A program made the translations under genes and the position numbers. A stretch of 63,512 nt of DNA, filler included, from Reclinomonas americana ATCC 50394 (lineage: Eukaryota), in assembly GCA_048213135.1 (NCBI GenBank). It is 16 parts of 16 records of this genome, joined end to end, with 100 filler letters (N's around TTAATTAATTAA, not from the genome) between each part and the next. Parts side by side here need not be neighbours in the genome. Positions count along the whole stretch, not along the records: positions 19,991 to 27,381 come from AFZH01023386.1; positions 27,482 to 32,332 come from AFZH01023387.1; 14 more parts are not named here. One strand, written 5' to 3'. Below are positions 12,483 through 62,468 of the stretch, in pieces. Under the pieces are notes generated by a model. That model was not told the DNA's origin. It made no database searches and saw nothing but the letters and a program-made list of their open reading frames with translations. Position 1 is the stretch's first letter, and every line of letters begins with the position of its first letter.

Positions 12483-15400
12483 TTACTCCACACGCCCATA
12501 GGTGCGGCGGTACAGCTTGTCCACCGAGGCCAAGAAGAACGTACCGGGTGCGAGGTTCTGCGTGCCGCTGGCCGGCTGCAGGTCGTTGGTGCCGTACGAC
12601 TTTTCGCGCTGAGCCAGCACCTGCACACATAGCAAGAAAGTGTGAGCCACGGCAACAGCGACCACTGCTGTTACCACAAGCTGCGATCGAACCTGAGTGA
12701 ATGTCTCAGGGTCGACCTTTACGCGCTGCGCCAGTCGGTTCTCCAAGTCGAGCTGGCGCTGAATGTTGGCCAGCGAGAACACTGGCGAGGCGGTCTTGCG
12801 ACCAGCCAGCACAAACATGGTGGAGCAGAGACCGGAGCCGTACGAGAACATCAACACACGCTTGCTTGTCTGCGCATCGCCAACACATCAAGTCAGTCAG
12901 CTGCCTGTCAGTCGAGAAGGATCGGAGGAGAGCAAACGCACCAGATGATCGCCCTGCTTGGCGACAGTGCCGACCAGCGACGCCCACAGCGATGCCGTGT
13001 ACGAGTTGCCGAGCTCCTCGCTCAGGAACGTGCCAGGAGCAACGCGGTGCTCGAACAGCTTCTTGCTGGCGGCCACAAAGGTCTGCCGTGCAATGGAGAC
13101 GGTGAATAGTCAAATAAAGGGATTGAGAAGAGTTATTTGATTTTGTCTTGTCTCTCAGGCAGGTTCTCTGATTGCGACGAACCCAGATCTCTCGCTTTGC
13201 GTCGCAGTCTGATCTCTCTGATTGCAAGGCAGGCTCTTTGACTCTCTCTCTCTCTCTCTCTCACTTCGCATCGCGTCAGACCTCTCTGCTTGCACAGTGT
13301 CGTTCGCCTCTCTCTCTCTCTCTTCTTCTCTCTCGCTTCCCGTGCATTAGATCACTCTGTGTGCCATACTGACACCTTTACATCGTCACTCTTTCTCTCT
13401 CCGTTCACAGCAGGCCGCCGTCGGATATCTCTCATTACAATTCGTGCAGCTTGTAATCGCCACTTCTCTCTCTCTCCAAGTCGCAGTCAGATCTCTCATA
13501 TACGGCCAAGTCTCTCTCAATCTCTCTTGCAAGATGCGCACCCTGGTGTCGTCGGTCCCTCTCTCTCTCTCTTGTGCTCCCTCTTCTGAATCAGTCAGAC
13601 AATACCTGCGACGAATACCTTGGCGTCAGTCTCACTCTCCATATTGCAGTCAAATCTCCCTGCTTCCAAGGTGTCGTCCATGTCTCTCTCTCGCCCTCCA
13701 CGATCATTCTTACTGCAAGACGGACACCTTAACATTGTATATCTTTTATCTCTCCTCTTGAAGACATAGTCCATCTCTCCCTCTCCTCCTTCTCTCCTCC
13801 GTCTCTCCCCCTTCCCCTTCCCTTCCCTCCCCCTTCTCTCCCCCTTCTCTCCCCCTTCCCCTTCCCTTCCCTCCCCCACCACACCTTATCAAAATCCTTG
13901 TTGCCAAAGGTCTCCTCGTACGGCAGCGCAAGAGCAGCAGCCAGTTCCTTGTTGTCACCCACAGCCTTTTGGCGGTCAGCATCGCTCATCAGCTTGTAAT
14001 CATTGTACGGCTGCATACCAACGCCATGTCAGCGTGGTGATGACGCGAGATCACTTCACAATCACATCTCAAACAAACCAGGCGAGCAAACGACTTTTGC
14101 ACCAGCTTGCTGAACGGTGAGTGGAGGAGGAAGTGATCAAAGTCGTGCACCGAGCCGTGTCCCTTCTGCACCGGCAAGGTCACGACATGCTCACACGCAG
14201 ATGTGAGAGAGAGATGAACGCACCTTTTGCTGCAACTTGCGCACAACCTTCTCGTAGCACGAGTCAATGGCCTTGTAGTAGCAGGTGATGGAGAATTGGC
14301 CCTGCAGAAGAGAGTGAGCATCGCAGTCGAGAATCCACAATGCTCGCGCGCACAACGCAACATCAACCACCGGGTACTCGGACTCCAACTTGGGCTCTGC
14401 ACAAAATAAGAGCAAGTAAGAAACAGATCCAGCACGACGACGACGATGCCGGTGACAGCAACGCAACTATAGAAATCGTACGCGTTCTGCATGTACGACG
14501 CACGGAGACCGGGAACAAACGACAGAGGAGCATCGGGGCCAATCAGCATTGCAGTCGCGGCCACGCCACCTGCACCCACACGCAATCAGTTACAACAACA
14601 GACATAGACCAGACAAGCCAACACCACCAGGCGTACCAGTTGGACGCGCAGGTCCCGGCTCGTACACTGCAATGTCANNNNNNNNNNNNNNNNNNNNNNN
14701 NNNNNNNNNNNNNNNNNNNNNTTAATTAATTAANNNNNNNNNNNNNNNNNNNNNNNNNNNNNNNNNNNNNNNNNNNNGAGGAGGAGGAGGAGGAGGAGGA
14801 GGAGGAGGAGGAGGCACAAGAGGAGAAGGAGAAGAAACAGCAAGAGAAATCGAGCAGAAAGTGAAAAAAGAAGGAGAACGAGTTGCAAAGATATGAAGAA
14901 CTGGACCCAAGTAGATAAGCGAAGAACGCAGACGCCTGTGTTGTGCCATCTCCCTCGCCTCACCAGTCATGGTGATCGACACAATATCCTCCGCATCACC
15001 GCAGAACGCCATGTTGCGCTGCCCGAGACCCACAGTGTACTTGCCAGTCGACACGCCATCGTACTTTTCTGCACCACATCGCAGGCGTGAGAAGAGATCG
15101 CACAGGAATCTCGATATCAGCACACCCACCAAGATCTGTCAAGAAACAACAATCAGTCACGATCCAGTGCTCACACAGCAACAAAAACAGCACTGACCTG
15201 CTTGACTGACGTACGTCGAGGGGAAGTACACCTCCATGGCCAGCACACCGACATGCGAAGGACGCGAGTGCTGCGAAAAAAAAAAGGGAGAGTGAGAACT
15301 TCTCATGCGCGACATCTTCTCACATGGCGCACAGGGAGAGAAGACCGCCCCCACTCTCTCCTCTTCTTCTCTCTCTCTCCAGTGCACATGGTATGTGTGC

Positions 15401-15915: not shown

Positions 15916-17969
15916 TCACACGACAAACTGCACCATGCACAACAAGACATGGTAAGCATGAGCATCACAAAAAACCCGTCAACTCCGGTCCACCATTTTC
16001 GCTCACCTTCTCCGCCGGTCTCAGCAACTCCCGCAGCGTCGGCGTCACCGACACCTCCACGTCCAGCTGTGGCGATGCGCGTGCCAGTCGCACCAGCTCG
16101 CGCAGGTCGAGCAGGATCTGCGCCGACATCTTGTCCATGTCGGTGGCTTCGGCGTTCGTCGTTGCGGCGGCTGCACCGCCGGCACTCCCATCGGAGGCAT
16201 CGCGGCGCATGAGCTTCTTCAGCGACTCTTCTGTCTTGCGGCCCGTCTCGATGATCTCGCGGGCAATGTCCTCAAAGCTGCGCGCGCGCGTAGCTGACAG
16301 TCAGCGTCCAAAGACGACAACTGCCTCGCCAGAGAAAATACAGCGAGTAACTTTTTCATGACCACGCCGAGCACGCTCGAGGCCCACTCGTGCCGCGTGA
16401 AGCCCAGGTGATTTGGCATGAGGCCACACAGGTGCTGCAGCGGTTCGAGAGTGGCGGCCACGTACGGCAGCGGTTCCGCCGGCATCTCGCGCTGCGTCAT
16501 GCGATAGGCCGACGGTAATCTACGCAAGTCGGCCAGGTGGCGCACGCACAGTGGCGGCACGATGGCGAGCACGCGGGCGCCAATGTCGCGCTCGGCCACC
16601 GCCTGCAGCGCCGCCGTCGACTCGAGAATGCACTCTGTGCACGCACGTCCGTCAGGAGAAGATGGGGGGAAGCACTCGACACTTCACATACCGCTGACAA
16701 TCGACACCACGGCTTCGTCCTTGATTCGCTGCGTGCGCAGCACGCGCAGCAAGGGGCCCTCGACAAACTCGCCCATCTCCACCAGGTCGCAGTGCACGTG
16801 CACCAGGGCCTCCTGATCCAGTTCGCCCACTCGTTTCACGACGTACGTGCGCAACCGCGACAGCAACTGGACCGTCAGCCGCACGAAGCGATGCAGCAGT
16901 GGCGCCAGATACACGCCCTCCGACCACGTGTAGAGCAGCAGTCGTGCAATTTGTGCCACCTGGCCGGTGCGGAACGAGCACACCTCCACGGCGGCCGGTG
17001 TCACCAGAGCGGCGGGTGGTTGTGCGAGCGATTTCTCGGCTTGCGTGGCGATCTCTTGGAAGCTGCGCACAAAAGCAAAGGGGGTGAGAAAAGGAGAAGG
17101 AGGGAAGAGGGGGAGGGAGAGGGAGGGAGAGGGAATGGGAGACAGGCGGAAGAGTGGCAAGAGATTGCTTGTTTTGCATCGCGGGCACGATGGGGGAGAG
17201 CAAGAGAAGGCGACGGGGAATAATGGGAAGAGATTGCTTGTCTCGTATCTCAGGCACGATGAGAAAAGCGAGAGGGGGGGAGAGGATTACTGGGAAGAAA
17301 TTGCTTGTCTTGCAGGATGATTGGGTAAGCGAGAGAGGGGGTGAGAGAGACAAAGAAGTGAATGCTTGTCTCGAGTCGCAGGCACGATTGGGAGAGAGAT
17401 GGAGAAAGGGAGGGAGAGAGATGGGGAGGGAGAGACAGCGCTCGCGCGAGTGAGGGCAAAGTGGGAAGATATTGCTTCGAGTCTCAGGCACGATAGAGAG
17501 AGTGAGCGTGAGAGAGAGAGAGAGAGACAAAATAGAGAGAGAGAGAGGAGAAGACAGAGAGNNNNNNNNNNNNNNNNNNNNNNNNNNNNNNNNNNNNNNN
17601 NNNNNTTAATTAATTAANNNNNNNNNNNNNNNNNNNNNNNNNNNNNNNNNNNNNNNNNNNNAGTGAGTGAGTGAGTGAGTGAGAGAGAGAGAGAGAGTGA
17701 GTGAGTGAGTGAGTGAGTGAGTGAGTGAGTGAGTGAGTGTGTATGTGTGTGTGTGAGTGAGTGAGTGAGTGAGGGAGGGAGTGTGTGTGTGAGAGAGTGA
17801 GTGAGTGAGTGAGTGAGTGAGTGAGTGAGTGAGTGAGTGAGTGCAGTGCAGTGCAGTGCAGTGCAGTGCAGTGCAGTGCAGTGCAGTGCAGTGCAGTGCA
17901 GTGAGACTTACCTATTAGTGCCTCCTCTGCAATGCATGAGACGGGAAAGGTGGAGCCACCAGTGGCCAT
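15916..17969 (-). CDS. COG2: Conserved oligomeric Golgi complex subunit 2 (C-terminal half 15916-17063; putative first exon 17912-17969; middle in gap)
   Basis: Motifs TWSEGVYLAPLLHRFVRLTVQLLSR, LPSAYRMTQREMP..PLPYV, TGRKTEESLKKL, TDMDKMSAQILLDL match my recollection of the COG2 C-terminal region; first exon assignment is tentative. Confidence 0.82.
17140..17500. repeat. Intronic minisatellite, ~55-65 bp units (gagattgcttgtctc...ggcacgat)
   Basis: About six imperfect copies visible. Confidence 0.75.
17662..17905. repeat. Microsatellites (GAGT)n and (GTGCA)n
   Basis: Direct inspection. Confidence 0.95.
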
Positions 17970-22176: not shown

Positions 22177-22935
22177 TTAGTTCTCTCTTGCAATGCCGCC
22201 AGTATCGAATGCGTTCTTCAGCCGGGTCGCGGCCACGTCGCTGCGTGTCTCGACATACAGCACGCGATTCGAGCCCTGCATCACGAGCTGCAACGCGGGA
22301 CAGTGAGCGCAGTGCATTCACCGCGCCGGCGACGGAGGAGAACTCGTGCGTGGCGGTACCTTGAACACAACACCGGTCAGCTTGTAGCTGGCCACCTTCC
22401 CCGAGTAAGCCACCACGTTGAACGCGTCCGACTCGTTGTTGCCATTGTACAGAGCATACGTGAAGACCTGTGTGCACGTGGGTGGGTGGGGTTGATTAGC
22501 TGCTGCAGCGAGAACCCGAACATGCTGCAAAGTGTGCGCAGCAGCGTCACTCTCACCTGCGTCTGATCGTTAAACTTGAGGCCGCAGGTGTGCCAGTCAG
22601 AGACCAGGTTGTCCTCCTTGATCCTCGAGCGCAGCAGGACGGTCAAGGTGCCGGCGTGGACCTGCACGAGAGAAGACTCATCTGCGACCGCGACGAGTGC
22701 AGGTATGTCAGCAATGTTCATGTCGAACACGTACACGACGCTCATGCAGAGAAGAAGAAGATTGTAGGGGAGAAAGAAAGAGGGAGCGGCATGGCCATGC
22801 TCACTCTCTGCAAACGCAACAATCGGCCAGTGCCTCACGCAAGTCACTGCGGAGGGTACGTGCAGAGGCCACTGCGCACGAAGCACACAGAAGAAGACAG
22901 GCAAGGGCGAGCAAGGCGAGTGTGTTTCGGCTCAT
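22177..22935 (-). CDS. Small secreted protein (~150 aa, 4 exons), paralog A, possible PH-like fold
   Basis: Spliced product MSRNTLALLALACLLLCASCAVASARTLRSDLREALAD-YESSLVQVHAGTLTV...DWHTCGLKFNDQTQ-VFTYALY...GVVFK-LVMQGSNRVLYVETRSDVAATRLKNAFDTGGIAREN*; splice sites and frame conserved in paralog B. Confidence 0.8.
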
Positions 22936-23609
22936 GGAATATCGCGTTTTTTGTTTTCACGATATCCGACGCGAGCAGCAATTTAATGCGTCCCTTCCGG
23001 CACATGCAAACGGAAAATGAAGCACGGCTCATCGGTGCGATGAAAGCAGTGTGGTTACCACAGCTCGCAGCACACAAGTGACACCAGCAACGACGACCAC
23101 AGAAGGCGGACAAAACTGGACACAGCAGCCCAGTTGTCTCACACCGTTCATTCGCATGTGTGTGCACAGAGCAGCAGGTCGCGCGAATGACTTGTGAGAG
23201 TAGGAAAGAACGGGCCTTCACACAAGTACCTGCAACAAGCACGCTGCGGTGAGTGGAGGCGATCGCGGCACAACCTGGTGCAAGTGACTCACCAAAGAAC
23301 AAGTGCGGAATCAACGACGGCCACCGGCCTCAGACCACATGAGTCGAGGTCTGCTTGCAGCCAGGAGCGCGCATGTCAGTGGCACCGCAGCATATCCACT
23401 TGAAGGCCATCTGACGCATGCAAAAAGCAATCGTTAGAAAGCAGCGCGGCGTGGCGGAGTACGTACGGCACGCTATGAGCAGCAGACCAGACTTGGAAAG
23501 GTCTTATCGTCAGTGCTTCTCGTCTCCAACTTCTCCAGCTGCTCGCAGAATAACAAACGAGCATGAACAAGAGCGATTGAGGTGTTTCAAGATTTCACAA
23601 CGTGCAAAC

Positions 23610-26600
23610 CGTCTGCGAAAACAAGTAAGAGAGTGATGCAACGAGGCACATACAGAAGAAGTCTGCACACACCTTGTTGAACTGGTCACCCAACGAAGCA
23701 TGTGCGTGCGCGTCAAACAAATAGTTGCTTGTCTAACGCATTCCGCAGAGACAAAACATACCGGCTGGGCACACAGATAGAGCATTCTTCAGTGGACCCA
23801 GAGAACACAAACGATTACTGATACTCATGCGCGCACGATAGATCTCATTTACACATACACACACACACACACACACATGCACACTCAACTTCCTGCAATG
23901 ATTCATGCGACCATCGTCAATTGTCACCACGCATACCAACACGCTCCCAGTCAGTGAGCACAGATGCATCAAAACAGGCACACTTACAGCCGTCCAAAAT
24001 ACTTCTCTCTCTCTCTCTAAACACACAACAGTGCTCACCAACTGCACAGTCAATGGTGCAGAATCCATCGCCGATGCCGCCGTGCAAGAAAAAACACACC
24101 AACAAGCACAGTCAGTCAAGCACAGCAAGACAAATGCTCACGCTCTCACTCAAACGCGTGCACTCACCGACTGCATCCCAACGTCATGCCGTCCAGCGCA
24201 GATACACACGAATCATGCACAGTCAGTTGTCGACAACAAGGACAATGGCACAATCTCTCTCTCTCTTGGAACCACACGCACTTGCACATGCTGCACGACC
24301 ACACCCACCGTTGCGCACATGAAAACACACGGCGCACGCAGTCAGTCAATGACACACAAACATCTACGCACTCAAGAATACTTAACTTCCGGACGCAGCG
24401 GCTAATGACAGCCGTCACAATCGTGCACGATCAGCCACACTCAACGCAAACACACAGATGCAAACACACACACACACACGCGCGCGCGCGCACACGCACA
24501 CACACACACCTCCTGCATTTTGCCAGTTGCCAAACACGCAGGCGTAAATACACAAACACAGACCGCTCAGAAGACGGCAAGCTGCTCACCGTCTTCATTG
24601 CCAAACATCAATTAACATCGTCGAAGATAGATTCACTGTCAACAAACACGCCCATGTACAACACAGACGCACGCGTACGCAACTCGCTGCGTTTTGATGC
24701 ACCCACGACCATCCACCATTTGTGCACGGTCAGTTAACGATACAGACCACTTTGCAAACACACTCTTTCGCTCTAACACTCATGCACACGCAAGCGCTTC
24801 AAATAAATGCATACTCAGCTCGCTACAGCACATACACGAACACCGGGCACAGTCAGTTGTCCACAATACACCTGGCACACGAAAGATCGCACTCACATAC
24901 TGCAGCAATCCATGCCATACGCACACAGTCAGTTGATCTTGACAAAACACACATTCACAAGCATAGCGTACTCAACTCCCTGCATCGTCACACGTACGGA
25001 AAAATGGGACAGTAAGCAGATGTAGACTGCAACTTGCGTGGCAGGCACAAGCATACTCACATCCTGCACGAGCACAGTGAGCAGACCACCCAGAGGAAGC
25101 AGACAACATGCATGCGCAGACTCTGTCTCTCTCTCTCTACATGCGCGCGCACACAAGCACGTGCACACGCAACGTTCTGCATTGTTGTACGCATCGCAAA
25201 TCATCAAGCGCACCAAGAATGTATCAGCCAAAAGCCTCCATGCAAAAACATATGCGCACATACGCACCAGCTGCGTCACACACAACAAGAAGATCAGGCA
25301 TCTGACGCACACACACGTTGCAATCCCAAATGCATACTCAACTCCCTGCAGAATCACGCAACCATCCCCAATACGCCGCACGCAGTTAGCAGCGACATTA
25401 ATTCAGATGCTGTGCACCATCTTCCCGACGCACCTCCTGTTGTCAAGAATCCACCCGTGCAGAGACATGAGCTCGACGCACTCAATTGCAACGTATGAAC
25501 CAAGCAAGCAAGCGACACTCTCACCGACTGCATTCGCAAGCGTCATCACGAACGTCGACATACATTCACAAGCGCATACAGTCAGCGACGACACGCGATC
25601 ACCCATGAACAAACGGGCGCAAGAACTCACCCACTGCGTGCATCACCATCCCGGTCACACGGCACACACAGCCAGTCATTCACACCACACTCGCCCAACA
25701 CATGAACACGCTTACTCACATGCTGCATCGCCGACGCAATTAGCAGAGTCAGATGATGAAAGCAAGAACGAACAGAGAAACAGGAATAGATTTGTACTCA
25801 ACTTCCTGTACACAGCCACGGCATGTCAAGCGCGCACTTAGTCGCCAGACAATAGTGCACTGCAACAAGACGCGGGCGAACTCACCGCCTTCGTCGTAAT
25901 CGTAATTATCGGATTGAAGAAACATACAAATCACCACATCGACAGCAATCTCTCGCGCCACGCACGCAATACACTCACCGACTGTAAAGATGTAGTGACG
26001 CCCATACAAGGTCAGCTTTTTGTCAAAGAAACAAAACAGGACGCACAGAGCACTGCTCCATGCTTGTTTCTCACCGACTAACGCATGCAGTTGTCGCCAA
26101 ATCATTCCACCAGTCAGTCAGCTGACATCCATTCGCGATCGCAGCAAGCAAGCACACACTCACATACTGCGCAACATTACCAGACAATCACGAATTCAGT
26201 CTGACTGCAAGAACAGATCAACGATTGCAAAGCAAACGCAACTGCCTGAGTTGACGGATCAATGATCGTCATTGGCATTGAAAAAGAGCACAGTCAGTCG
26301 AGCGCACGACAGAAAACAACAAGCACCACTACTCTGACAAACGCGCACACTCAACTTGCTGCAAGTTCACCGTCATTTCCACCATCATGCAAGCAAGTGA
26401 GTCGACGAGCTTCATCACAAACAACACAACATACTGATTCTCACCGCCTGCATCAATGAACACAGACACAGTCAGTCGACGAATCAAGATCAACACCTCT
26501 CACTCGCAAACAATCGAATACTAACCCACTGTCACATTGTGTATTCATCAACATTGGCGCCGTTACACAAACACACACTGTCAGGGTATTGCAACACCAA

Positions 26601-27319
26601 ACGCCTTCGCTTCAAAGTTTCATACACTCACCAACTACGTCGTGTCGTAAACGTCAATGTTTTTCCACACACAAAGCGTCAGCCACACCACCAGCAAGGA
26701 CGACGCAGATGCAAGCAACAACCACTCAACTCCCTACATCAGGAAAGTCAGTCGAATACACAAACACAATTTCTCCTTCCCCCCAACACACACTCGAACA
26801 CTCACCGACTACGTGCATTCATCACCATTGGGGCCATCATGCAGACAATTGTGGCATGTTAGATCTCAGTCGCGATCTACGACACACCACACACAAACTC
26901 ACCTCCTGCGAATAGCCATGCAGTACCATTGTCGAGCACACGTCAGAAAAGTCGAGCACATTACAACGAAACGTAATGAACTCAACTTTCTGAAATTGGA
27001 CGAAGACACACGCCACATTCAGTCAGTTCTCTGCAAAGAGTAGCAAAAGCAAGCATACTAACCAGCTATAGAGTTGTTGCCAAACAGAATCAACATATCC
27101 TCAGTCAGAATGTAACAACCGTCGCCCTCAGCGCGAACACAAGCATGCACACGCATGCACGCACACACGCACACACACATATATACTCGCCCACTGCGTG
27201 TCATGCATCGCTCGTGAGTGTCACCGTTACAATTGCAGGCGTACAGTCAACAAACGCACTCAACTCCCTGCAAGTAGTAGATCATGCATACATCGCCATT
27301 ATCGCCAAGACCACACACG

Positions 27320-27375
<56 letters not shown>

Positions 27376-27996
27376 ACACACNNNNNNNNNNNNNNNNNNN
27401 NNNNNNNNNNNNNNNNNNNNNNNNNTTAATTAATTAANNNNNNNNNNNNNNNNNNNNNNNNNNNNNNNNNNNNNNNNNNNNCATCACACCGACGGTCAGA
27501 CTGATATGATCATGCACCTTTGAAAGGACTGCATGCAAACACCGCTCACATCCTGCAAGTTCGCCGATTGGCGGCATGCATAGTCAGCAAGTGACCCATC
27601 CTCAGCGCTCAAACAAGCAGAACCTCTCACCCACTGTCGTGTTGGTGGCGAACACAATCGTGACGGTAACGTAAGCTCCGCAAGAAAGCGCAATTCCCGA
27701 ACGAAGCACATTGGCACGCAACTCCCTGACGCACGCAAAGTTGGTCAATAACAACAACAACACGCACAATCAGTGACACGACGCAAGCTGAAGGTACTCA
27801 CATCCTAATTGTCATGCAATCGCGCAAGCACGGACGCAAAGTCAGCCGCCATCACTCGCTAACAAGATCAAATAACACGCAGACGCAACTCGCTGCGAAA
27901 TCATGCGCACAAACAAACACCACAAGCGCAGTCAGTTGATGGCAAACAACGCACACAACCGAGACACACGGGCGTGCACGAATTATCTCTCTCCAG

Positions 27997-28034
<38 letters not shown>

Positions 28035-29264
28035 AACTTCCTGCATCACGCGTGCATCGTCATTTGGTGGTTCACACAAAACACAAAAAAGAAGCACAGT
28101 TAGTTAATTAACAATTCGTTTACACACATACACACACTCACCAGCTGTAGTGTCGCCAGTGCCGTACCACACACGACGTATGCAAAAGCAACATCAGTCG
28201 ATCACATCAACGACAGTCGCACTCTCTGCACACACACACAAACTTAACTCCCTGCAATACACAAGGCGAAGCGCACAGTCAGTCAAAGGTGCGCCGAAGA
28301 CGCAATCTCTATCCATATACACTCAACTCCCTGGGTTGGTGTTGCATCAAACGGAGACAACCGCAATCACGGTCAATCGAAACGCTCTCACATCCGTGTG
28401 AACAATTTCACAACAATAACTCACAGACTGCGACATTGAGCGCAAAGAGGTCACACAAACACACGCCACACGCAGTCAGTGACCCCATTCGAGAGATATC
28501 CACATGCACCAGCACACGAATGTACGCACAAACTGCAACCGCAATTGAGATCGCAGTGAGTAAATGGTACGATCTCAAACCAATCACAAGCGCAGCCTCA
28601 CCGTCTAATGTCGCATACGTCACCATCGTGGCCGACAAACAACATACGCAGTCAGTTGACGCTCTCACCACACATGCATACATGCACACTCAACTTCCTG
28701 CAATCATGCATCCGCCGTCGGTGAACACACACACAAACACACACACATGTTTAGTAAGCGACACTCGCACGCTCGAATGATGAGCACACGTTCGTCATAC
28801 TCAACAAGCTGCACATTTGCACGTCCATTGCCATCGCCGCCGTCACAACACATTTGAACACCATTCGCAGTGATGAGGAGGATTACGCACACGCACTCCG
28901 CTTATCCACTCGCAAGAAGGGTTCCAACTCACCACCTGCAGCATCACGAACATGTCAGCACAAGTGCACAAGGAGAGAGATCTAGAGAGAGAGAAAGATG
29001 AATATACACACACACACACACAAACATGCAAACATGCAAACATGCAAACATGCAAACATGCAAACATACCCACTGCACGTGTTTCGCAATCATGAACACA
29101 AAAATCAACGTGCACAACCACCGTCAGTCACTCATCCCACAAACACACACTTCACACGAACTCGCATACTCACATACTGCACGACCACACATTCACCGTC
29201 ACCGCAGCGTCAGAGTGAGGAACACATCAGCAACCTCAAAACCCAAGCGCGTAACACGAACCAG
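23610..29264 (-). other. Array of ~55 putative 3-nt (single-codon) microexons separated by ~70-150-nt introns
   Basis: Recurring minus-strand pattern YAG|NNN|GTGAGT/GTTGAGT/GTTGCGT/GTGCGT with frequent upstream CTGAC branch motifs (cagtcag on +); e.g. 29174-29176 TAT, 28695-28697 GAA, 27631-27633 TGG, 26806-26808 TCG, 25061-25063 GAT, 24168-24170 TCG, 23890-23892 GAA. Confidence 0.85.
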
Positions 29265-29380
29265 CTGAAAGCGCGAGCTGAAAGTGAGAAACCTCACGAG
29301 GAAAGAATGCAAGAATCGCGCGCGGCGTAACCTCTGTATGATGCGTGCACGACTGGCCCGGAACAGCTGGCTGTCCGCAC

Positions 29381-29840
29381 CTCTTGCACAACTTTGTCCG
29401 CCATCTTCGTCAACAATGCAAGACAACAGAACGTGCCATCAGATGCCACACGAACCGGGAGCTGAGCGCTTGCTTCCTGCTGCCGACGCTCTTCCTCTGC
29501 GGCAGCTGCAGCCTCTTCGCGCAAGCGCAAGGCGCCCATCTCCTGTTCGAGTGTGGCGGCGGCCTCCATTTCTCCGCGACACACTGGACACCCGTGTGCA
29601 CGATGCACGGGAACACACGCGAGACAGCTGAGACAGGAGGTGAGGAGACGCTGGCGAGTGGCGAGATGCGCACAATGGAGTGCGTGAGTTTTGAAACACA
29701 CACACACACACGCACATTGTGTGACCGTGTCCACACGGCGCCACCATCGGGCGGTGCTCATCGGCGTCAAACGCCTCGCGGCAGACAAGACAACGAGCGC
29801 CCTCGCCCAAGGCGCCAGCGTGAGGCACAAAGTCTTCCAT
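29381..29840 (-). CDS. RING-finger (C3HC4-type) plus coiled-coil exons; 5' part of the microexon gene (putative E3 ubiquitin ligase)
   Basis: Spliced CLVCREAFDADEHRPMVAPCGHGHT-ICLACVPVHRAHGCPVCR, then EQEMGALRLREEAAAAAEEERRQQE; exon ends ...KVVQE|gtgcgg in phase 0 at 29381. Confidence 0.8.
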
Positions 29841-30507: not shown

Positions 30508-31262
30508 TCAGTTCTCTTTCGCAATGCCCGCCGTATCGAATGCAGACTTCAGCCGGCCTGCGGCCGCGTCGCTGCGCGACTCGACGAACAGCACGCGATT
30601 CGAACCTTGCATCACCAGCTGCAACACAGGCCACACTGAGCGCATGCGCAGACAAGAAGTAAACACGACTTGAGCTGCTGTTGCGAACCTTGAACACCAC
30701 GCCGGTCTGCTTGTAGCTGGCCACCTTACCCGAGTACCTCACCACGTTAAACGCATCCGACTCGCTCACGTTGTTGTCGGTCAAGAGAGAGTACGTGAAG
30801 AACTGCGCGCGGGCAGCGTGAAAAACAAGCCCTCTCGAACATGCTGCTTGCTGCAAAGTGTGCGCAGCATTCATGATCACGCACCTGCGACTGATCGTCG
30901 AACTTGATGCTGCAGGTGAGCCAGTCGGAGACCAGGTTGTCCTCCTTGATTCTCGACCGCTGCACCGTCAAGGTGCCGGCGTGGACCTGCACGAGGGAGG
31001 ACTCATCTGCAACAGCGACAAGTGCAGGTATGTCAGCAATGATGGTCATGTCGAACACGTACACGACGCACATGCAGAGAAGAAGATTGTAGGGAGAGAG
31101 AAAGAGGGAGAGCCATGGCCATGCTCACTCTCTGCAAACGCAACAATCGGCCAGTGCCTCTCGCAAGTCACTGCGGAGGGTGCGTGCAGAGGCCACTGCG
31201 CACGAGGCACACAAAAGAATACAGGCAACGGCGAGCAAGACGACGAGTGTGTTTCGGCTCAT
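30508..31262 (-). CDS. Small secreted protein, paralog B of 22177-22935
   Basis: Same signal peptide, three introns at identical positions, ends ...KSAFDTAGIAKEN*. Confidence 0.8.
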
Positions 31263-32959
31263 GGAATATCGCGTTTTGTGCTTTTCGATGATATCCAACG
31301 CGAGCCTCAATGCATGCCTGCGTTACAGCGGACAAAAGGAAACGCGTTTTGCTGCGTGCGGTTCATCGGTGTGTACACAGCAGTGTGGTCATCGGCACTC
31401 TCAGCACGCAAAAGGGCGCTGCAATCGACGTGGGAGAGAGGAGAGCGAACACCTGCATGTCACCTGACGATCGTGTCGTCTCCTTATCGGTTCGCTTCTG
31501 TTGGCTTCCGCTCTTCCGAGAGCAACCCATCTGATCGGTACTCAACTGCGGTGATCACTCCGGTCTAACTGAAGTCGCAGACGAAGAGATATCGATGGTT
31601 TGGGCCCCGGTTCGGTCCGGTTCGGTTTTCAAACGCAGGCCGGAAGTGGCCGCACGGAAAACTCTGGCGGCATCGCACTGCAGCTCCCTCTGCACAGCAT
31701 GCCACTGGTGTCATCGGCAACAGCACGCACAGTCGACAAAAGACTGTGTCCTGCGTTGCGAGGAAAATTCTGACAAACCGATGTCGACATGTCCTGCATT
31801 CCTCTCTCACACTCACACACACGAGAGCCAAGGAGCCGAGGCTTCCCGTCACCTCCGCTGACACTTTCCTGTATATCGACAAGCTCGCTTGCTGCACTCG
31901 TATCCAGATCAGGAAAGAACACGACCGAAACAGCGCATCCACACACACAAACAAACCACGCACTCAATATCAGTGACCTCCTGTGCGTCATGGCAAGTGG
32001 CAGTGGTGTGCACCGTGAGTTGCGTCGAGCTGGTCCTCCTTCTGATGTCATTCTTTGTGTGTGTGATTTCCTCATGCTGCGATGATTGCTTCTCAAACTC
32101 TTCTGACTCCGCCTGGCGCTTCTCTGTTTATTCTCTCTCCGTTTCTCACAGTCTTACGTGCACTCTATCCCTCACATCTCTCTCTATGCACTATCTCCTC
32201 TCTCACTCTTTCTCTCACTCTCACCTTCCTCTCTCTCTCTCTCTGCCTTCCTCTCTTCTCTCACACTCGAGATATCTCTCAGCAGTTTCTCCTCTGCCTC
32301 ACTCTTGCTCTCCCCTTCACTCTCCCTCTCTCNNNNNNNNNNNNNNNNNNNNNNNNNNNNNNNNNNNNNNNNNNNNTTAATTAATTAANNNNNNNNNNNN
32401 NNNNNNNNNNNNNNNNNNNNNNNNNNNNNNNNTTCCGAAGGTGGTACAAGAATACAATGGCCGCTACCAGCAGTGGAGTACGAGCATAAAGAGCGACGAA
32501 AGCGATTGGCAGTGCAGCGGCAGAGGTCATGTGAGTGAGGAAGTGGTTGCACAAGAGTACAGTGATCCCCACCAGCAGCGAGGAGATGGACATCGACGAG
32601 CAGGGGGAGTAGCGCAAGCGGAGAATAGAATGGAGAGCCACATGTAGTTGGCCAAGAGAGGTGATACGGGAGTGAGTGAGGGAAAGTACATGAGGACAGT
32701 GGTTACTAACAGCATGACCAGAGAAGTGAGGACGAGGCACAAGAGGGCAGTGACCGCTCTGAGCAGGACAGAGCCACAAGTAGTTTTCCGAGAGAAGTTC
32801 GGAAGAGGCAGCGCAAGAGGTCAGTGATCCCCAACAGCAACATAGGGAGGAAAGAAACACAAGTAGTGGAACGAGAGAGAGCTGTGGCACATGAGGACAG
32901 TGATCTCCACTAGCCGCGAGGAGAGCAGGAGCATGGAGGTCACTCACCCTACGCGTCAG

Positions 32960-35485
32960 GCGGAGAGCGCACTGGGAGACGCGCTGCGTGCATTCGTCGC
33001 GGCACAAGCGCGAGTTGACGAGGCGGAGGGTCGACGAATGGCCAGTCAAGTGGACGCACTGCTGGCAAGTCAGGAGCTTGAGCCAGCACGTCGGCTCCTG
33101 CGACAATTGATGCAAGCATCGAACGGCATGATGGTACTCGACAATGTGGGTTCGGCGGAACAAGTGAGGAGTGTTGTGTGCAGCGCCGAGGGTGAGTGAG
33201 CGCCGTCGCCAATCGACAATACGGAGATGCTTATATCCTCTTTTTCCGCAACGCCAGGCGGATTTGTGGCCCCGATCGTGGTGCTCACCAGCCGACACGC
33301 GCGTGTGGCCGACGAGATTCGCGACATCGTGGCGAATGAAGCAGTGGTGGAATGCGTGCAAGTCGAGAGCGTCGAAGATGAGGACGTGGTGGAACTGGTG
33401 GAGGAGCGACTGCGCAGCGTGGTCGGAGAGGGAGTGCGTCGACGCATTGTGGAGGCGCTGGAGAGCGGAGGACAGCAACACAAGAGCGCGCTACGAGTGA
33501 GTGCGTGTGTGGGGTGAGCGAGTGCGCATGATCTGGCTGTTACTGTACGTGCGCTCTCTCTCTTTCTTTTGCCTCACTTCTGCGCATCTTGCAGTTGGCT
33601 TCTCACGCAGTCGCCAGCGCAGTTGGAGGGCGCGCGACTGGAACAAGTCCTCCACGGCATTGGCGGTGATGCGCTGTCGCAGCTGCTGGAACGCAACGTA
33701 ATGTCGCAGACACTGCCGGCGCGCCGCTTGTTACTACTGATCACGGCGTGCAAGGAACTCGGCTTGCCGGTGACGCCGGCACTCGCACGAGTGATGCTGG
33801 GCTTGCTTCATGCACTCCCCGATGTCGGCGACGTGGCGGAGGTGGGCGTGCCGGCCGACGACGAGGAACTGGCGACGAGGCTGATGGAGCTGGGCGAGTG
33901 TGTGCGACGACTTCGTCTGCATGAGTTGGCGCAGGAGAGGCGACGCCGTGCACCCGACTTGCTGGGCGAGCGACTGCAAGTTGACGAGATGAGTGAGGAG
34001 GAGGAGCAGCGAGTGCGCGCACGACGGGTGGAGTTGCTGGGCGAGACGGAGGAGGATGTGCAGGAATTGTTGGAGGCTCTGTGTCGGTGCAATTTGGTGA
34101 CGTTGGGCGTCAGCGGCAGCACGGACAGCGTGGCTCGTGTGCTGGCGGGGGAGCAAGTGCGTGAGAGTAACGTTGTCATGGAATATCGCGTGCACGACGA
34201 GATTGCGGCGTGGATTGTGCGACAAAGTGAAGCGGCCGTCTCACGAACGCAGCGACTTCTCGTGCGTCTGCTGTGCTGCACGCTGGTGGGCATCGACACC
34301 GCCTTGGACAATGACCGCACCGTGCTGGTATCTCGTGACATTGCCGGGGTGATGCACGTTGTGTGGCAGCGTCTCTGCAAGGACGACAAGCTGTGGTCTG
34401 CGATCGGTGTCCGCGGCCCCCTACTGCAGTGCTCGGCGGTGGAGTGGATCAGCGAGCAGTGCGTCACTGGTCACCAGCCGACCCGCGGATTCGACATGAC
34501 TCTCGTTCCGACGCTGTTGGATCGTGTGACCGAGTATGGTGAGCAGCAGAGCAGGCACACATGTCGACCGCTCAGTGTGACAGTGGCGCGGTGTCGTGCG
34601 TGGCTCTTCGATGTGCTGTACCAGTGGCAGGACCGTGCGGCTGCGTGGCAGCAGGCGTGCCGTCTGTGCGAGGAGTGGGGAGTAGCAGCTGGCGCAATGT
34701 CCGCGTTGGAAGGCATGGCCGCGCAGCGTAACATCATGTGGCTCGCCAACGGCACCGAAAACCTGCCGCTGCTGGTGCACTGCTACCACCAACAGTGCGT
34801 CACGCTCGGCGAGAGTCACCCCGACTCGCTAGTAACACTGGTCTACGTCGCCGGCTATCACCAGCGCAAGCGCGAGAACCGCGAGGCCGAGGCTCTCAAT
34901 CGGCGATGCTGGGAGTTGCGGCGGCGAGTGCTCGGCGAAGAGCATCCCGACACACTGATCTCCATGAACAATCTGGCCTCCAGCATTCGCGACCCGGCAC
35001 GTCTCCACGAGGTTCTCGCACTCAAGCGTGAGTGCACGCGGTTGATGGTGGCGGCGCTCGGCGCGCGCCATCCGTACGCACTCATGGCGCAGAGTAATCT
35101 CGGGGCCACGGTGCTGCGCAAGGACACGCCAGAGTCGACGGCGCAGGCAACTGATCTGTGTCGCGAGTGCCTCGAGGCACGGCGCGAGGTGCTCGGCAGC
35201 CGGCACGAAGACACCCTCGCGACGCTGGCCAACTACGGGTTCCTGCTGATGCTGCAGCGGCAGTGGGCGGCGGCGCAGCCGCTGCTGGTGGAGTGTGTGG
35301 CGGGTCGTCGGGCGGTGCTCGGCGATCAGCATCCGGAGACGCTGAAGGCCGAGAAGCTGCTGGGTGATTGTCGGTGGTATGAGGCGGAACAGGAGCTGCA
35401 GCAGCAGCAGCAGCAGCAGCAGGCGGCAGCGGTGGAGGAGGTGGGGGCGATGGCGGAGGAGGGTGGTGGTGATGAGCCAAGGTGA
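32960..35485 (+). CDS. NB-ARC-like NTPase plus TPR protein (NLR-like), 5' end probably in gap
   Basis: MMVLDNVGSAEQV (Walker B-like), IVVLTSRH (sensor-1-like), YRVHDEI (MHD-like), kinesin-light-chain-type TPRs (RRVLGEEHPDTLISMNNLA, EVLGSRHEDTLATLANYG); Walker A not seen. Confidence 0.75.
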
Positions 35486-35850
35486 AATGAAGTGTGATTG
35501 ATGCGAGAACAACGGAGAGAGCAGGAGCTGAGCTAGTCGAACGACAGCTACACAACGGCCAGTTTGGACGACACAAGGGGGTTTCATGCGTGAGTATTCT
35601 TCGAATAACAATTCATTCGAAAATGACCGAGTCCAACCATTTCCAAACAGTGAGGCACGCTTCATAGTGCAGGCGTAATTGGCGATGAGGTTCAGCCGCG
35701 CCGGAAACAAACATTCTCCCACGGCCGGCGCTCGGCAATACTCGGGGTCGNNNNNNNNNNNNNNNNNNNNNNNNNNNNNNNNNNNNNNNNNNNNTTAATT
35801 AATTAANNNNNNNNNNNNNNNNNNNNNNNNNNNNNNNNNNNNNNNNNNNN

Positions 35851-38430
35851 TGCGCTAACTGAGCCGCTCTGTAATGTGCCCACTGTCGTCACACTGCCGC
35901 CGCTGATCACACCGAATGCGCTGACTGAGCTGCCCTGCAGTGTGCCCACCGTCGTCACACTGCCGCCGCTGATCACACCGAATGTGCTAACTGAGCCACT
36001 CTCAAGTGTGCCCACCGTCGTCACACTGCCACCGCTGATCGCGCCGAATGTGCTGACTGAGCCGCTCTGCAATGAACCCACCGTCGTAACACTACCGCCG
36101 CTGACGACACCGAATGTGCTGACCGAGCCGCTCTGCAATGTGCCCACCGTCGTAACACTACCGCCGCTGACGACACCGAATGTGCTGACTGAGCCGCTCT
36201 GCAATAAACCCACCGTCGTCACACTGCCACCGCTGATCACGCCGAATGTGCTGACTGAGCTGCTCTGCAGTGTGCCCACCGTCGTCACACTGCCACCGGT
36301 GATCACACCGAATGTGCTGACCGAACTGCTCTCTAGCGTGCCAACAGTCGTAACACTGCCGCCGCTGATCACACCGAATGTGCTGACCGAGCTGCCCTGC
36401 AATGTGCCCATTGTCGTCACACTGCCGCCGCTGATTACACCGAATGTGCTGACTGAGCCGCTCTGCAATGAACCCACCGTCGTCACACTGCCACCGCTGA
36501 TCACGCCGAATGTGCTGACTGAGCCGCTCTGCAGTGTGCCCATTGTCGTCACACTGCCGCCGCTGATTACACCGAATGTGCTGACTGACCCACTCTGCAA
36601 TGAACCCACCGTCGTCACACTCCCACCGCTGATCACACCGAATGTGCTGACTGAGCCACTCTCAAGTGTGCCCACGGTCGTCACACTGCCGCCGCTGATC
36701 ACACCGAATGTGCTGACTGAGCCGCTCAGCAATGAACCAACCGTCGTCACACTGCCGCCGCTGATCACACCGAATGTGCTAACTGACCTGCCCTGCAGCG
36801 AACCAACCGTCGTCACACTCCCACCGCTGATCACACCGAATGTGCTGACTGAGCCGCTCTGCAATGAACCCACTGTCGTCACACTGCCGCCGCTGATCAC
36901 ACCGAATGTGCTGACTGAGCTGCTCTGCAATGAACCAACCGTCGTCACACTGCCGCCGCTGATCACACCGAATGTGCTGACTGAGCTGCTCTGCAACGAA
37001 CCAACCGTCGTCACGCTGCCGCCGCTGATCACGCCGAATGTGCTGACTGAGCCGCTCTGCAGCGAACCCATCGTCGTCACACTGCCGCCACTGATCACAC
37101 CGAATGTGCTGACTGAGCTGCTCTCAAGTGAACCCGCCGTCGTCACACTGCCGCCGCTGATCACACCGAATGTGCTGACCGAGCCGCTCTTCAGCGAACC
37201 CACCGTAGTCACACTGCCGCCGCTGATCACGCCGAATGTGCTGACCGAACTGCTCTCAAGCGTGCCCACCGTAGTCACACTGCCGCCGCTGATCACACCA
37301 AATGTGCTGACTGAGCTGCTCTGCAAGGAACCCACCGTCGTCACACTGCCGCCACTGATCACGCCGAATGTGCTGACTGAGCCGCTCTGCAGTGTGCCCA
37401 TTGTCGTCACACTGCCGCCGCTGATTACACCGAATGTGCTGACTGACCCACTCTGCAATGAACCCACCGTCGTCACACTGCCGCCACTGATCACACCGAA
37501 TGTGCTGACTGAGCCGCCTTGCAATGAACCCACCGTCGTCACACTGCCGCCACTGATCACGCCGAATGTGCTGACTGAGCCGCTCAGCAATGAACCAACC
37601 GTCGTCACACTGCCGCCGCTGATCAAACCGAATGTGCTGACCGAGCTGCCCTGCAGTGTACCCACCGTCGTCACACTGCCACCGCTGATCACACCAAATG
37701 TGCTGACTGAGCCGCCTTGCAATGAACCCACCGTCGTCACACTGCCGCCACTGATCACGCCGAATGTGCTGACCGAGCCACTCTGCAACGAACCAACCGT
37801 CGTCACACTGCCGCCGCTGATCACACCGAATGTGCTGACTGAGCCGCTCTGCAATGAACCCACCGTCGTCACACTGCCACCGCTGATCACACCGAATGCG
37901 CTGACCGAGCTGCCTTGCAACGAACCCACCGTCGTCACACTGCCGCCGCTAATCACACCGAATGTGCTGACTGAGCCGCTCTGCAATGAACCCACCGTCG
38001 TCACACTGCCACCGCTGATCACACCGAATGCGCTGACCGAGCTGCCTTGCAACGAACCCACCGTCGTCACACTGCCGCCGCTGATCACACCGAATGTGCT
38101 GACTGAGCCGCTCTGCAATGAACCCACTGTTGTCACACTGCCACCGCTGATCACACCAAATGTGCTGACTGAGCCGCTCTGCAATGAACCAACCGTCGTC
38201 ACACTGCCGCCGCTGATCACACCGAATGTGCTGATCGAGCCGCTCTGNNNNNNNNNNNNNNNNNNNNNNNNNNNNNNNNNNNNNNNNNNNNTTAATTAAT
38301 TAANNNNNNNNNNNNNNNNNNNNNNNNNNNNNNNNNNNNNNNNNNNNTCGTCGTCACACTGCCGCCGCTGATCACACCAAATGTGCTGACCGAACTGCTC
38401 TCAAGCGTGCCCACTGTCGTCACGCTACCG
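35851..38430. repeat. 66-bp coding tandem repeat (two 33-bp half units)
   Basis: Direct inspection; a second array lies at 42154-42750. Confidence 0.97.
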
Positions 38431-40686: not shown

Positions 40687-43600
40687 CTAACACGCAGTCG
40701 TGATGATGTTGCCCGTCGTTGGTGTGGCAACGTTGGTGACCGTGGCGTACGCACGTCCACCGGAAGCGCTTACAGCCACACTCGACATGTCAGTGTTGAC
40801 AGGCCCATATTCAGCGAGCCACGTCTGGCCGCCGTCGTTGGAAGCGAAAATGGCCGGTACCGTCTTGGTGGTTGCCACCACACGCATGCCATCTGCACTG
40901 CAGGCCACCGACGTCCAGTTCTTCGGATCAAACATGGTTGGTGTCTGATCCCATGACACACCCGAGTCTCTGGAAAAGTAAATGTTGCTGGCGTCGATCG
41001 ATGCATAGATCTTGCTCATGTCGTAGCTGCAGGCCACCGCGGTCCAGCTCTTGTTACTACCAAACCGCGACGTCATCGTGGCGCCAAAGTTGAGAGTCGT
41101 GAAGATGCGAGATCCAGATACGACCGTGACAAACTTCTGACAGTCCACGCTGCACGCCACGTCCACGTGTGCCCTTGACGCAGACCCAGCGGGAACACTC
41201 CAGGTGGTGCCCGAGTCACTTGACACATACACATTCGACGAGCTGCCGACAGCCACCATCTTTGAGCCATCGGTGCTCATGGCAATTGCGGAATAAGGCT
41301 GATTGCCGGCGGGGTTGTTACGTGCATTCCACAACGTGCCGCTGTTCGTCGACACCCAAATGTTGCCACCGTTCACCACGGCAGCCATCACCGTGCCATC
41401 AGAATTCATGGCCACGTCCGTGTAGACGCGATTGCCGGCTGCGGTATTCGTCTGCGCCCATGTCACACCAGAGTCCAGTGACAGGTACAAGGTACCTCCC
41501 GAGACACTCGCAAGAACCTTCGTCCCGTCCTGACTCGTGGCCACTGAGGACCACAGAAGAGTACCGGCGCTGGCGCGTGGCGTCCACGTGACGGTCGGAC
41601 AGTCAGTGCGCGGTGGCGATGGCGAGGCAAGGATGGGGACCCAATTCGTTCCATCGCTCAGCACTTGAACGGCGTAGAACGATCGTACCTCGCTCTCGCT
41701 CAGTCCGCGATTCAATTGCGACGACACCGTCGATGTCACCACCACACTGAACAGACCGCCAGCAGTCTGGCCAGTGCACCCATTGACCACCATGTACGCC
41801 TTGCCAGACACACCCACCGCTGTCGGCAGTGTCACCGTAATTGTCGTGCTTGCCGTCGGGAAACAGGAAGTCGGTCGGACGAGAATCACAAAGTCAGATG
41901 AGGCAGCAGAGTAATTGGCGTTCACAGAAGTCCACACCAACGTGCTTCCTGGTGTAGACCACAGTGCCGTAGTGCCAGATGCCGTCAGCACTTGACCAAC
42001 AGTACCCACTGCCAACTCTGTGGATCGACCTGATGAGTTGCCCACAAGGAGTGNNNNNNNNNNNNNNNNNNNNNNNNNNNNNNNNNNNNNNNNNNNNTTA
42101 ATTAATTAANNNNNNNNNNNNNNNNNNNNNNNNNNNNNNNNNNNNNNNNNNNNCTGATCACACCGAATGTGCTGACTGAGCCGCTCTGCAATGAACCCAC
42201 TGTCGTCACACTGCCACCGCTGATTACACCGAATGCACTGACTGAGCCGCTCTGCAGCGAACCAACCGTCGTCACACTCCCACCGCTGATCACCCCGAAT
42301 GTGCTGACTGAGCCGCTCTGCAATGAACCAACCGTCGTCACACTGCCGCCGCTAATCACGCCGAATGTACTGACTGAGCCGCTCTGCAACGAACCCACTG
42401 TCGTCACACTGCCGCCGCTGATCACACCGAATGTGCTGACTGAGCCGCTCTGCAGCGAACCAACCGTCGTCACACTGCCGCCGCTAATCACGCCGAATGT
42501 ACTGACTGAGCCGCTCTGCAACGAACCCACTGTCGTCACACTGCCGCCGCTGATCACACCGAATGTGCTGACTGAGCCGCTCTGCAGTGTGCCCACCGTC
42601 GTCACACTGCCGCCACTGATCACACCGAATGTGCTGACTGAGCCGCTCTGCAGTGTGCCCACCGTCGTCACACTGCCGCCGCTGATCACACCAAATGTGC
42701 TGACCGAACTGCTCTCAAGCGTGCCTACTGTCGTCACGCTGCCGCCGCTGATCAACCCGGTAGCTGTCATCCTTCCGGATGTACTGATCATGGCCGCCTC
42801 CATCGTTCCACTCGTTGTCAAACTCCCGCCGGTCACAACGCCGACTGCGGTCACCGCTCCCGCAGTCACCGTTCGACTTGGCGACAGTAATCCGAAGGAC
42901 TGCAACGTGTTTGTTATTGACGATATTCCTGCGCAAAATGGTCAGCAACTAGGTTTACTCGTCGCGATATACGGGGTCACGCATACACACATGTACGTAC
43001 CTGCTGTTGTCGAGGCGTCGACACCTGCAAGTGCATTGGTTAGCGACAGGGTCCACGCGACAACATCCGTAATCGTGCTGTTTGTACGTTGCGTCAACGT
43101 ATCGATCCTATAATCCAACACAGCACGCGTGGCTGCCACATAGTCCGTCACCATGTCGACGCGAGCCAGTGTGTCGGGCACTCGCGAATCCAGTAACTCC
43201 TGTACCATGGCTCTGTCGCGCGCCTGCTGCTCCGACGTCAACTCAGCTGCACTTAAGTGCCACGTCTGGTTCGTCGGATTGTACACCAATGTCCTCAAAA
43301 AGTCCTCATTCGGAATGCTCAGCGGCTTTTGCGACAAGTACAAGTATCCGCCAACGCCGAGCGCCGCCATCGACGTCAGTAGTGCCACCGATACCGCAAT
43401 CCACAGCACAGTCAGCTGGCGCATACTCACTTGTGCTGCCGCGCGGCCAGCTGCACCGCTTGAACTGCGCAATCGCAGGTCTGCACTCGGCGGCACAATC
43501 GGCACCGACACAACCGACCCTCTCGACGCCGACGACGATGACGACGGCGAATGTGACGCAGCCGCCGGCCGCTGTGTGTTGTACATGCGTGCGCAGTTGA

Positions 43601-62368: not shown

Positions 62369-62468
62369 NNNNNNNNNNNNNNNNNNNNNNNNNNNNNNNN
62401 NNNNNNNNNNNNTTAATTAATTAANNNNNNNNNNNNNNNNNNNNNNNNNNNNNNNNNNNNNNNNNNNN

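Follow-up and report, generated by a model that had tools for sequence, protein, structure and literature searches.

The window analysed here, 63,512 nt of the genome of Reclinomonas americana ATCC 50394 (assembly GCA_048213135.1), is made of contigs of about 2-5 kb strung together by 15 identical linkers of 100 nt each (44 N + TTAATTAATTAA + 44 N; for instance at 6068-6167, 27382-27481 and 62369-62468). On its minus strand, from 29840 to about 23330, lies a candidate gene that would start with two exons for a RING finger, continue through a long chain of exons of only three bases each, and finish in a likely terminal exon with a Btk-type zinc-finger motif. The parts of this predicted gene, in the order of its transcription, are the following:

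29716..29840, minus strand: exon 1, with an ATG at 29840, 41 codons plus two bases, the first RING half (C-x2-C-x15-C-x3-H) and a proposed donor GTGCGT at 29715-29710
29628..29715, minus strand: putative RING-internal intron of 88 nt, running from GTGCGT to CTCAG with a (TG)n run, needed to join RING halves that lie in different frames
29381..29627, minus strand: exon 2, completing the RING with C-x2-C-x9-C-x2-C before a coiled-coil-like stretch rich in Ala, Glu and Arg, and ending in phase 0 (...GAG / GTGCGG)
27550..29264, minus strand: 18 three-base exons that open the chain, the first at 29262-29264 (CTG) and the last at 27550-27552, with introns of 69-145 nt
27382..27481, no strand: assembly linker within the chain, one of the 15 identical ones
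23762..27267, minus strand: 36 further three-base exons of the chain, the first at 27265-27267 and the last, CCG, at 23762-23764, with introns of 71-146 nt and one of 219 nt
24380..24392, minus strand: putative decayed unit CCG-GAA-GTTAAGT within the 219-nt intron, with the triplet GAA and the donor GTTAAGT, its acceptor being CG and not AG
23654..23662, minus strand: 9-nt exon of three codons, acceptor TGCAG, donor GTATGT
23610..23612, minus strand: ACG, possibly the 55th exon of one codon, with CGCAG as acceptor and GTTTGC as donor
23330..23410, minus strand: likely terminal coding exon of 26 codons plus a stop at 23332-23330, with an acceptor AG at 23412-23411, a phase 0 start and a CTAAC about 27 nt upstream

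The chain runs from 29264 to 23762 and comprises 54 units, each formed by an acceptor AG, three bases and a donor, with neighbouring units 69-146 nt apart. This range holds for 53 of the 55 intervening stretches; one of the remaining two measures 219 nt, and the other 282 nt including the 100-nt linker at 27382-27481, which leaves 18 units before it and 36 after it. The acceptors are CAG in 44 units, TAG in eight and AAG in two, always with AG, and the donors start with GT in 52 of the 54 cases and with GC in two (GCGAGT and GCTGAGT). Two classes of donor can be recognised, one similar to GTGAGT and the other made of seven bases, G[TC]T[GA][AC]GT, which is found in 19 of the units. A branch-like CTGAC/CTAAC motif, from a set picked on the nine introns of a neighbouring HMG-CoA synthase gene, occurs no closer than 8 nt to the 3′ end in 49 of the 54 array introns, at a median distance of 31 nt. 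An exhaustive list of the AG-NNN-G[TC] sites with a good donor yielded, beyond the 54 units, only by-products located 8-9 nt inside the unit donors or sites that leave no room for an intron. The 219-nt intron is about twice the usual length because the decayed unit at 24380-24392 sits inside it, and this unit looks like a lost one-codon exon. A previous reading of this DNA, made from the sequence only, had already reported the triplets CTG (29262-29264) and CCG (23762-23764), the 9-nt exon (23654-23662) and ACG (23610-23612), as well as two GC donor variants, frequent CTGAC motifs in the introns and a phase 0 end of the upstream exon at 29381, just before GTGCGG, and all of these were found again. 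That reading also treated 27382-27481 as a gap, which has to be corrected: this stretch is a contig linker, and not missing sequence of known size. The HMG-CoA synthase gene runs over another linker (14678-14777, as seen by tblastn), so the order of the contigs is real and neighbours are truly adjacent. Linkers do not fix the size of the gaps, and some units of the chain may have been lost within the one at 27382-27481.

The three-base spacing is far beyond what chance would give. The sequence-only reading had proposed a regular expression for an acceptor and a donor separated by n bases, expecting a sharp peak at n=3, minus strand only, over shuffled sequence. On the minus strand of 23400-29400, this search gave 47 matches at n=3 and 1-4 at each of the other spacings tried (n=0 to 12), with two at n=0 (AG directly before GT, as in recursive splice sites); on the plus strand of the same region there were four matches at n=3. 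Outside this region the minus strand shows no such peak, with 28 matches at n=3 versus 21-49 for the other values of n. When the acceptor was restricted to [CT]AG, 43 of the 52 minus-strand matches of the whole window fell in the 23-30 kb interval, as compared to seven matches on the plus strand. Comparison with 100 dinucleotide-preserving shuffles led to the same picture for both donor classes, as the counts observed were never reached: YAGNNNGTGAG occurs 33 times, 22 of them in the array (7.17 +/- 2.86 expected; 0/100 shuffles reach 33), and YAGNNNGTTGMGT occurs 17 times, all of them in the array (0.85 +/- 0.93 expected).

A reference for splicing in this organism is offered by the HMG-CoA synthase gene on the minus strand at 15267-12489, whose protein has only distant matches (plants, insects and fungi, with identities of up to 74% across 17% of the query). 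Six HMG-CoA synthases were aligned to the window by tblastn and, after reading the boundaries from the sequence, nine introns of 58-72 nt could be fixed, with the acceptors GCAG (eight of nine) and ACAG (one of nine) and the donors GTACGC, GTGCGT (twice), GTTTGT, GTCAGT, GTGGGT, GTTCGA and GTTGCGT (twice). The two GTTGCGT donors (14467-14461 and 14361-14355, minus strand), which follow exons ending in A or T, indicate that the seven-base class of the array is in proven use, and this noncanonical type of donor seems to be common in the organism; the donor GTTTGT can likewise be compared with the GTTTGC that follows the ACG unit. A search of the literature for GTTGAGT or GTTGCGT as whole words, in DNA or RNA spelling, turned up no splicing paper. 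The same gene contains a 6-nt exon, ATCTTG (15130-15135, minus strand), set between introns of 62 and 61 nt and fixed by protein homology, so that, as judged from this alignment, the spliceosome here is able to handle tiny exons in a housekeeping gene.

The introns of the array and those of the HMG-CoA synthase gene share their donor types, a [TC]GCAG-type acceptor, a branch-like CTRAY motif and their base composition (A.17, C.18, G.32, T.33 in the array; A.13, C.22, G.31, T.34 in the reference), which is unlike that of exons (T.21-.22, C.27-.30). They differ in length, with a median of 90.5 nt in the array versus 67 nt in the reference (P=4e-6), and in the distance from the last branch-like motif to the acceptor, with medians of 31 and 18 nt, respectively (P=7e-4). 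When branch distances were compared more crudely, using introns predicted over the full window, the difference did not reach significance (P=0.08). The longer distance may provide room between the branch-site complex and a donor located only 3 nt past the acceptor; a 2026 preprint (PMC12871342) reports that neural microexons have a longer stretch from branch to acceptor.

Beyond these signals, the array introns have nothing evident in common. In an all-vs-all blastn of the 54 introns free of N, the best 25 of 426 rows were all TG-type runs in six introns, and TRF detected microsatellites and one 8-nt repeat only, with no long-period repeat. That 8-nt repeat is located in the third array intron (29021-29067; CAAACATG on the plus strand, 5.9 copies), and several other array introns carry (TG)n runs. 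A tandem repeat or an introner-like family was rejected from the TRF and blastn results, as the units lack similarity. A host of snoRNAs or mirtrons was discarded as well: no Rfam match reaches the gathering score anywhere in the window, the C box RTGATGA occurs in three of the 54 introns and in none of them lies at least 40 nt ahead of a D box, and the fold z-scores have a mean of 0.00, with a single intron below -2. A plus-strand gene over the array was the third candidate rejected, as the plus-strand open reading frames (ORFs) across it match no Pfam family. The 54 pairs of splice sites are all intact while the introns share splice signals only, which argues for selection on splicing as the force that maintains these signals. 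The uniform design of the units suggests that they arose by duplication, in which case all but the splice signals would have diverged.

At the 5′ side of the chain, exon 1 matches two Pfam families, zf-RING_UBOX (E=0.0012, 19.2 bits versus a cut-off of 25.2) and zf-RING_2 (E=0.0038, 17.9 versus 27.3), both below the curated cut-offs, because the domain is split between exons. The donor GTGCGT at 29715 was chosen from the spacing of the RING finger and is thus a proposal; the halves joined through it would read C-x2-C-x15-C-x3-H-x2-C-x2-C-x9-C-x2-C, which would agree with the C3HC4 consensus C-x2-C-x(9-39)-C-x(1-3)-H-x(2-3)-C-x2-C-x(4-48)-C-x2-C, the Pfam scan having been made on the unspliced halves. 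No Pfam family was found for exon 2, a word search among longer proteins gave no match for it, and 0 of 596 pattern matches were confirmed in metagenome contigs. At the 3′ side, the likely terminal exon, which had escaped the sequence-only reading, carries the motif W-x-CC-x9-C, with a match to PF00779 (E=2.9e-06, 27.5 bits versus a cut-off of 24; profile positions 11-25 of 30) that is the only one in a six-frame translation of the window. To be a terminal coding exon it has to be preceded by others on its strand, and none but those of the chain and the RING finger are present there. The frame is unbroken from the RING to the Btk motif, as exon 2 ends in phase 0 and all the exons in between are multiples of three.

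Read as codons, the 54 triplets comprise 22 different ones and no stop. After shuffling the bases within each codon position, 5.9 stops would be expected and only 5 of 20000 shuffles were stop-free (P about 0.00025); shuffling position 1 alone gave 0 of 20000, and position 3 alone P=0.001. The avoidance is specific in its pattern: TGN is always TGG (5/5), [GC]GN always [GC]GA (10/10) and TAN always TAT (3/3). All but one of the 54 triplets end in G, T or A, and a final A is strictly coupled to one class of donor: G[TC]T[GA][AC]GT follows all 17 triplets ending in A versus two of the 37 with other endings (Fisher P=3.6e-12), so the last exon base belongs to donor recognition. The residues of the encoded tail look, from this composition, largely dictated by the needs of the splice sites, which suits a tolerated spacer no less than a designed library. 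Stop avoidance is, on these counts, a good but not conclusive sign of translation.

Altogether, the most plausible explanation, which we hold to be probable though well short of certain, is a true chain of translated one-codon exons in a single RING gene, as predicted from the DNA. The proposal of the sequence-only reading, a RING gene that continues through about 55 one-codon exons, is thereby strengthened by the splice signals, the absence of stops (it had noted that phase 0 was stop-free) and the phase 0 flanks, with the splicing itself standing as a prediction. The use of the splice sites, the translation of the triplets and their origin by duplication would then fit together as follows. 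A single minus-strand gene for a protein, extending from 29840 to about 23330, would include at least 54 constitutive or nearly constitutive one-codon exons. Splicing would proceed by intron definition, with the introns recognised as units, so that exon length would not be limiting; a donor, a branch motif and a TGCAG acceptor would be present in each intron, and the removal of all the introns would leave three bases per unit, in frame. The resulting protein of about 208 residues would have a C3HC4 RING finger followed by a coiled coil, then some 58 tail residues assembled codon by codon, and lastly a Btk-type zinc-binding motif. The chain would have grown through repeated duplication, by unequal exchange, of a 'codon plus intron' unit, without ever breaking the frame, and the copies would have diverged afterwards, selection keeping only the splice signals and the absence of stops. 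The tail would act as a tolerated spacer, its residues being mostly set by what suits a 3-nt exon.

Several observations weigh against this explanation. Among the signals, five of the 54 array introns have no branch-like motif, and the chain starts with two weak donors (GTGCGG and GTTCGT). Among the flanking exons, the Pfam matches to the split RING domain are sub-threshold and concern its first half only, and a search of 1.84 billion representative proteins gave no relative for exon 2 at E<=0.001. In the Btk motif, the profile positions 1-10 are unmatched and the nearest upstream His is off the canonical spacing, the His ligand of Btk lying about 11 residues ahead of the CC pair; the PH domain that usually precedes this motif was not found in the exons scanned with Pfam. 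The 3′ end of the gene is ambiguous, with three possible endings: apart from the Btk exon, a 41-nt intron after the 9-nt exon could lead to a stop after five codons, ACG then being the start of a short terminal exon, or an unspliced read-through could follow for 50 codons from 23662 to a stop. In the case of the triplets, the stop test becomes weaker with TAA and TGA only, TAG being omitted (P=0.017), and splicing alone might disfavour stops, as AG followed by TGA or TAA would create GTGAGT or GTAAGT, and TAG a NAGNAG acceptor; against this confounding effect, TAT, TGG and TTT also build donor hexamers used here (GTATGT, GTGGGT and GTTTGT) and make up 9 of the 17 triplets that start with T. 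Finally, the literature searched, in which most subscription journals were not covered, holds no report of a chain of this length: what it offers is limited to isolated exons of 3 nt and to RPS24, with three microexons next to each other, and 55 adjacent splicing events that are all efficient would have no precedent.

A different explanation, unlikely but deserving serious attention, accepts the splice sites as real and supposes that the usual mRNA lacks most or all of the triplets. The 5.9 kb between the RING and Btk exons would be removed piecewise or by skipping, and would matter for processing, by delaying it or by sensing the capacity for splicing, and not as a code; the triplets would be included variably, and some isoforms would join the RING directly to the Btk motif. 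Any subset of 3-nt exons keeps the frame, with both flanking exons in phase 0, adjacent introns that share a 3-nt exon would force their complexes to compete sterically, the tail residues are mostly fixed by splice-site needs, and the decayed unit at 24380-24392 would show that a unit can be lost without harm. On the other hand, triplets rarely included would leave little reason for stop avoidance in all 54 of them, every unit has kept both an acceptor and a donor, which together define inclusion, and the intervening DNA shows no evident function (no fold, snoRNA boxes or Rfam match). A regulated use of the chain, to which we would give only a small chance, would be that about 55 ordered splicings, imposed by neighbouring introns that share a 3-nt exon and so could not both be engaged at once, serve as a timer or a gauge of spliceosome capacity for the output of the RING ligase, or that variable skipping produces a large set of in-frame tails between the RING and the zinc-binding motif, the peptide library proposed by the sequence-only reading.

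It is also rather improbable that the chain is spliced but untranslated. In this case an earlier stop would be used, for example the one reached 29 codons past 29381 if the first array intron is retained through its weak GTGCGG donor, and the array would be either a spliced 3′ UTR or the relic of a coding tail. The weakness of the first donors, the length of that open frame, the orphan character of the gene, and a tail composition and stop avoidance that splice constraints alone can explain or confound, all agree with this possibility. Introns downstream of a stop codon lead to nonsense-mediated decay, and fifty-odd of them would mark the mRNA for it; moreover, a relic would not hold 54 out of 54 splice-site pairs while its introns lost all similarity, and the Btk exon is in frame and ends in a stop, with 0 stops found in the triplets against the 5.9 expected. 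The possibility that no splicing is involved, and that the array is a tandem repeat of old date whose copies have diverged, a group of genes for small RNAs or a series of binding sites with an acceptor/donor-like core, appears highly improbable. The regular spacing of about 70-150 nt and the presence of CTGA in 37 of the 54 units could be read in this sense, and short-period tandem repeats in metagenome contigs can carry AG-NNN-GT cores. In a scan of such contigs, a mostly prokaryotic collection, for three consecutive units, at least 110 loci were found; the unit-richest loci among the matches listed are short-period tandem repeats with at most four distinct triplets (units counted on either strand), as opposed to 22 in the chain, and none of the four loci viewed among these at least 110 (L031, L051, L071 and L080) is similar to a diverged chain. 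In addition, the core of the units corresponds exactly to the acceptor and to both classes of donor that the HMG-CoA synthase gene has in proven use, down to the coupling of GTTG[AC]GT with an A before it. Microsatellites as the only TRF repeats, dissimilar units, a mean fold z-score of 0.00, the correct C/D order in 0 of 54 introns, and the absence of Rfam matches and of plus-strand Pfam matches all speak against repeats and small RNAs.

Among the known systems, recursive splicing proceeds through ratchet points, where AG abuts GT and nothing is left behind. The chain resembles it in the stepwise removal of a long region at composite acceptor-donor sites, but in all 54 of its units three bases lie between AG and GT, so each step would leave a codon. 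The micro-exon genes (MEGs) of Schistosoma have exons of 3-81 bp regularly interspersed with introns of up to 5 kb, according to PMC10526429. Both cases have short symmetric exons, here all of 3 or 9 nt, whose skipping keeps the frame. MEGs differ in that most of their exons are larger than one codon, their introns are long, they encode secreted parasite proteins and variation by skipping has been documented for them; by contrast, 55 of the 56 exons of the chain (the 54 units, ACG and the 9-nt exon) have exactly three bases, the introns span 69-146 nt and the protein would start with a RING finger, no signal-peptide predictor having been run. The chain gene is not a member of the MEG family; its RING exon is without relatives in the libraries searched and its introns are short.

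Isolated 3-nt microexons have been described in homothorax of Drosophila, in human MAP4K5 and RPS24, and in plant surveys (PMC7392893, PMC8632122, PMC12207440 and PMC8831610). These papers indicate that the major spliceosome splices one-codon exons, which makes the chain mechanistically possible. The cases described there are single or have up to three neighbours (RPS24), usually with long introns and often regulated, as compared to at least 54 in succession here. The likely route for multiplying a 'codon plus intron' unit is the gain of introns by tandem duplication of a segment that holds AGGT, in which the splice signals are duplicated and the frame is unchanged (PMC3265369 and PMC4974935); the examples given in them are single, recent events with recognisable copies, whereas the chain would need more than 50 of them, with copies that are no longer alike. 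As for the donors of the A/GTTGAGT type, their pairing with U1 improves if it is shifted by one base or if a U is bulged, as in the shifted and +2/+3 bulge registers that PMC4856993 gives for about 1.5% of human donors; moved by one base to the right, A/GTTGAGT resembles AG/(T)TGAGT. The proportion is larger here, with seven-base donors in 19 of the 54 units of the chain and in two of the nine HMG-CoA synthase introns, and a shifted or bulged pairing of U1 may operate in this organism.

With regard to the surroundings of the gene, two segments of about 800 nt (22179-22976 and 30510-31305), 81% identical and in the same orientation, lie one on each side of it; neither matches a Pfam family, and no coding frame stood out clearly when codon positions were tested. 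Elsewhere, the window contains four tandem paralogous genes of near-identical WD40 repeats (453-8765, plus strand) and a TPR_10/TPR_12 protein (33518-35485, plus strand), the atlas search of a TPR protein having returned generic TPR clusters only. Very long open frames with a 22-residue repeat rich in Gly, Ser, Val and Thr (35803-38295 and 42102-42941, both on the minus strand) are interrupted by assembly gaps and adjoin a BNR/Sortilin-like beta-propeller ORF (40687-42105). An ORF with SHIPPO (sperm-tail PG-rich) repeats (51299-52306, plus strand) and a COG2 C-terminal domain (16219-16683, minus strand) point to a flagellated eukaryote, as far as predicted proteins can tell. For a 1058-residue ORF (56353-59526, plus strand), no relative of comparable length was found in a library of 5.8 billion proteins.

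A last question concerns the meaning of this chain, which, as predicted, would be an extreme microexon architecture and by far the longest chain of its kind known. If it is spliced as read here, it would set a new extreme both for the minimal exon and for the length of a run of such exons, with at least 54 as compared to single cases or triplets. It would offer a test bed for pure intron definition, for the steric limits of a donor placed 3 nt from the complex at the 3′ splice site, and for noncanonical donor registers. It would also imply that a coding region can grow through duplications of a 'codon plus intron' unit that never break the frame. Finally, whole protein segments of this kind would escape gene finders and short-read aligners, given that any 31-base word of the mRNA would cover about ten exons and match nothing in the genome.

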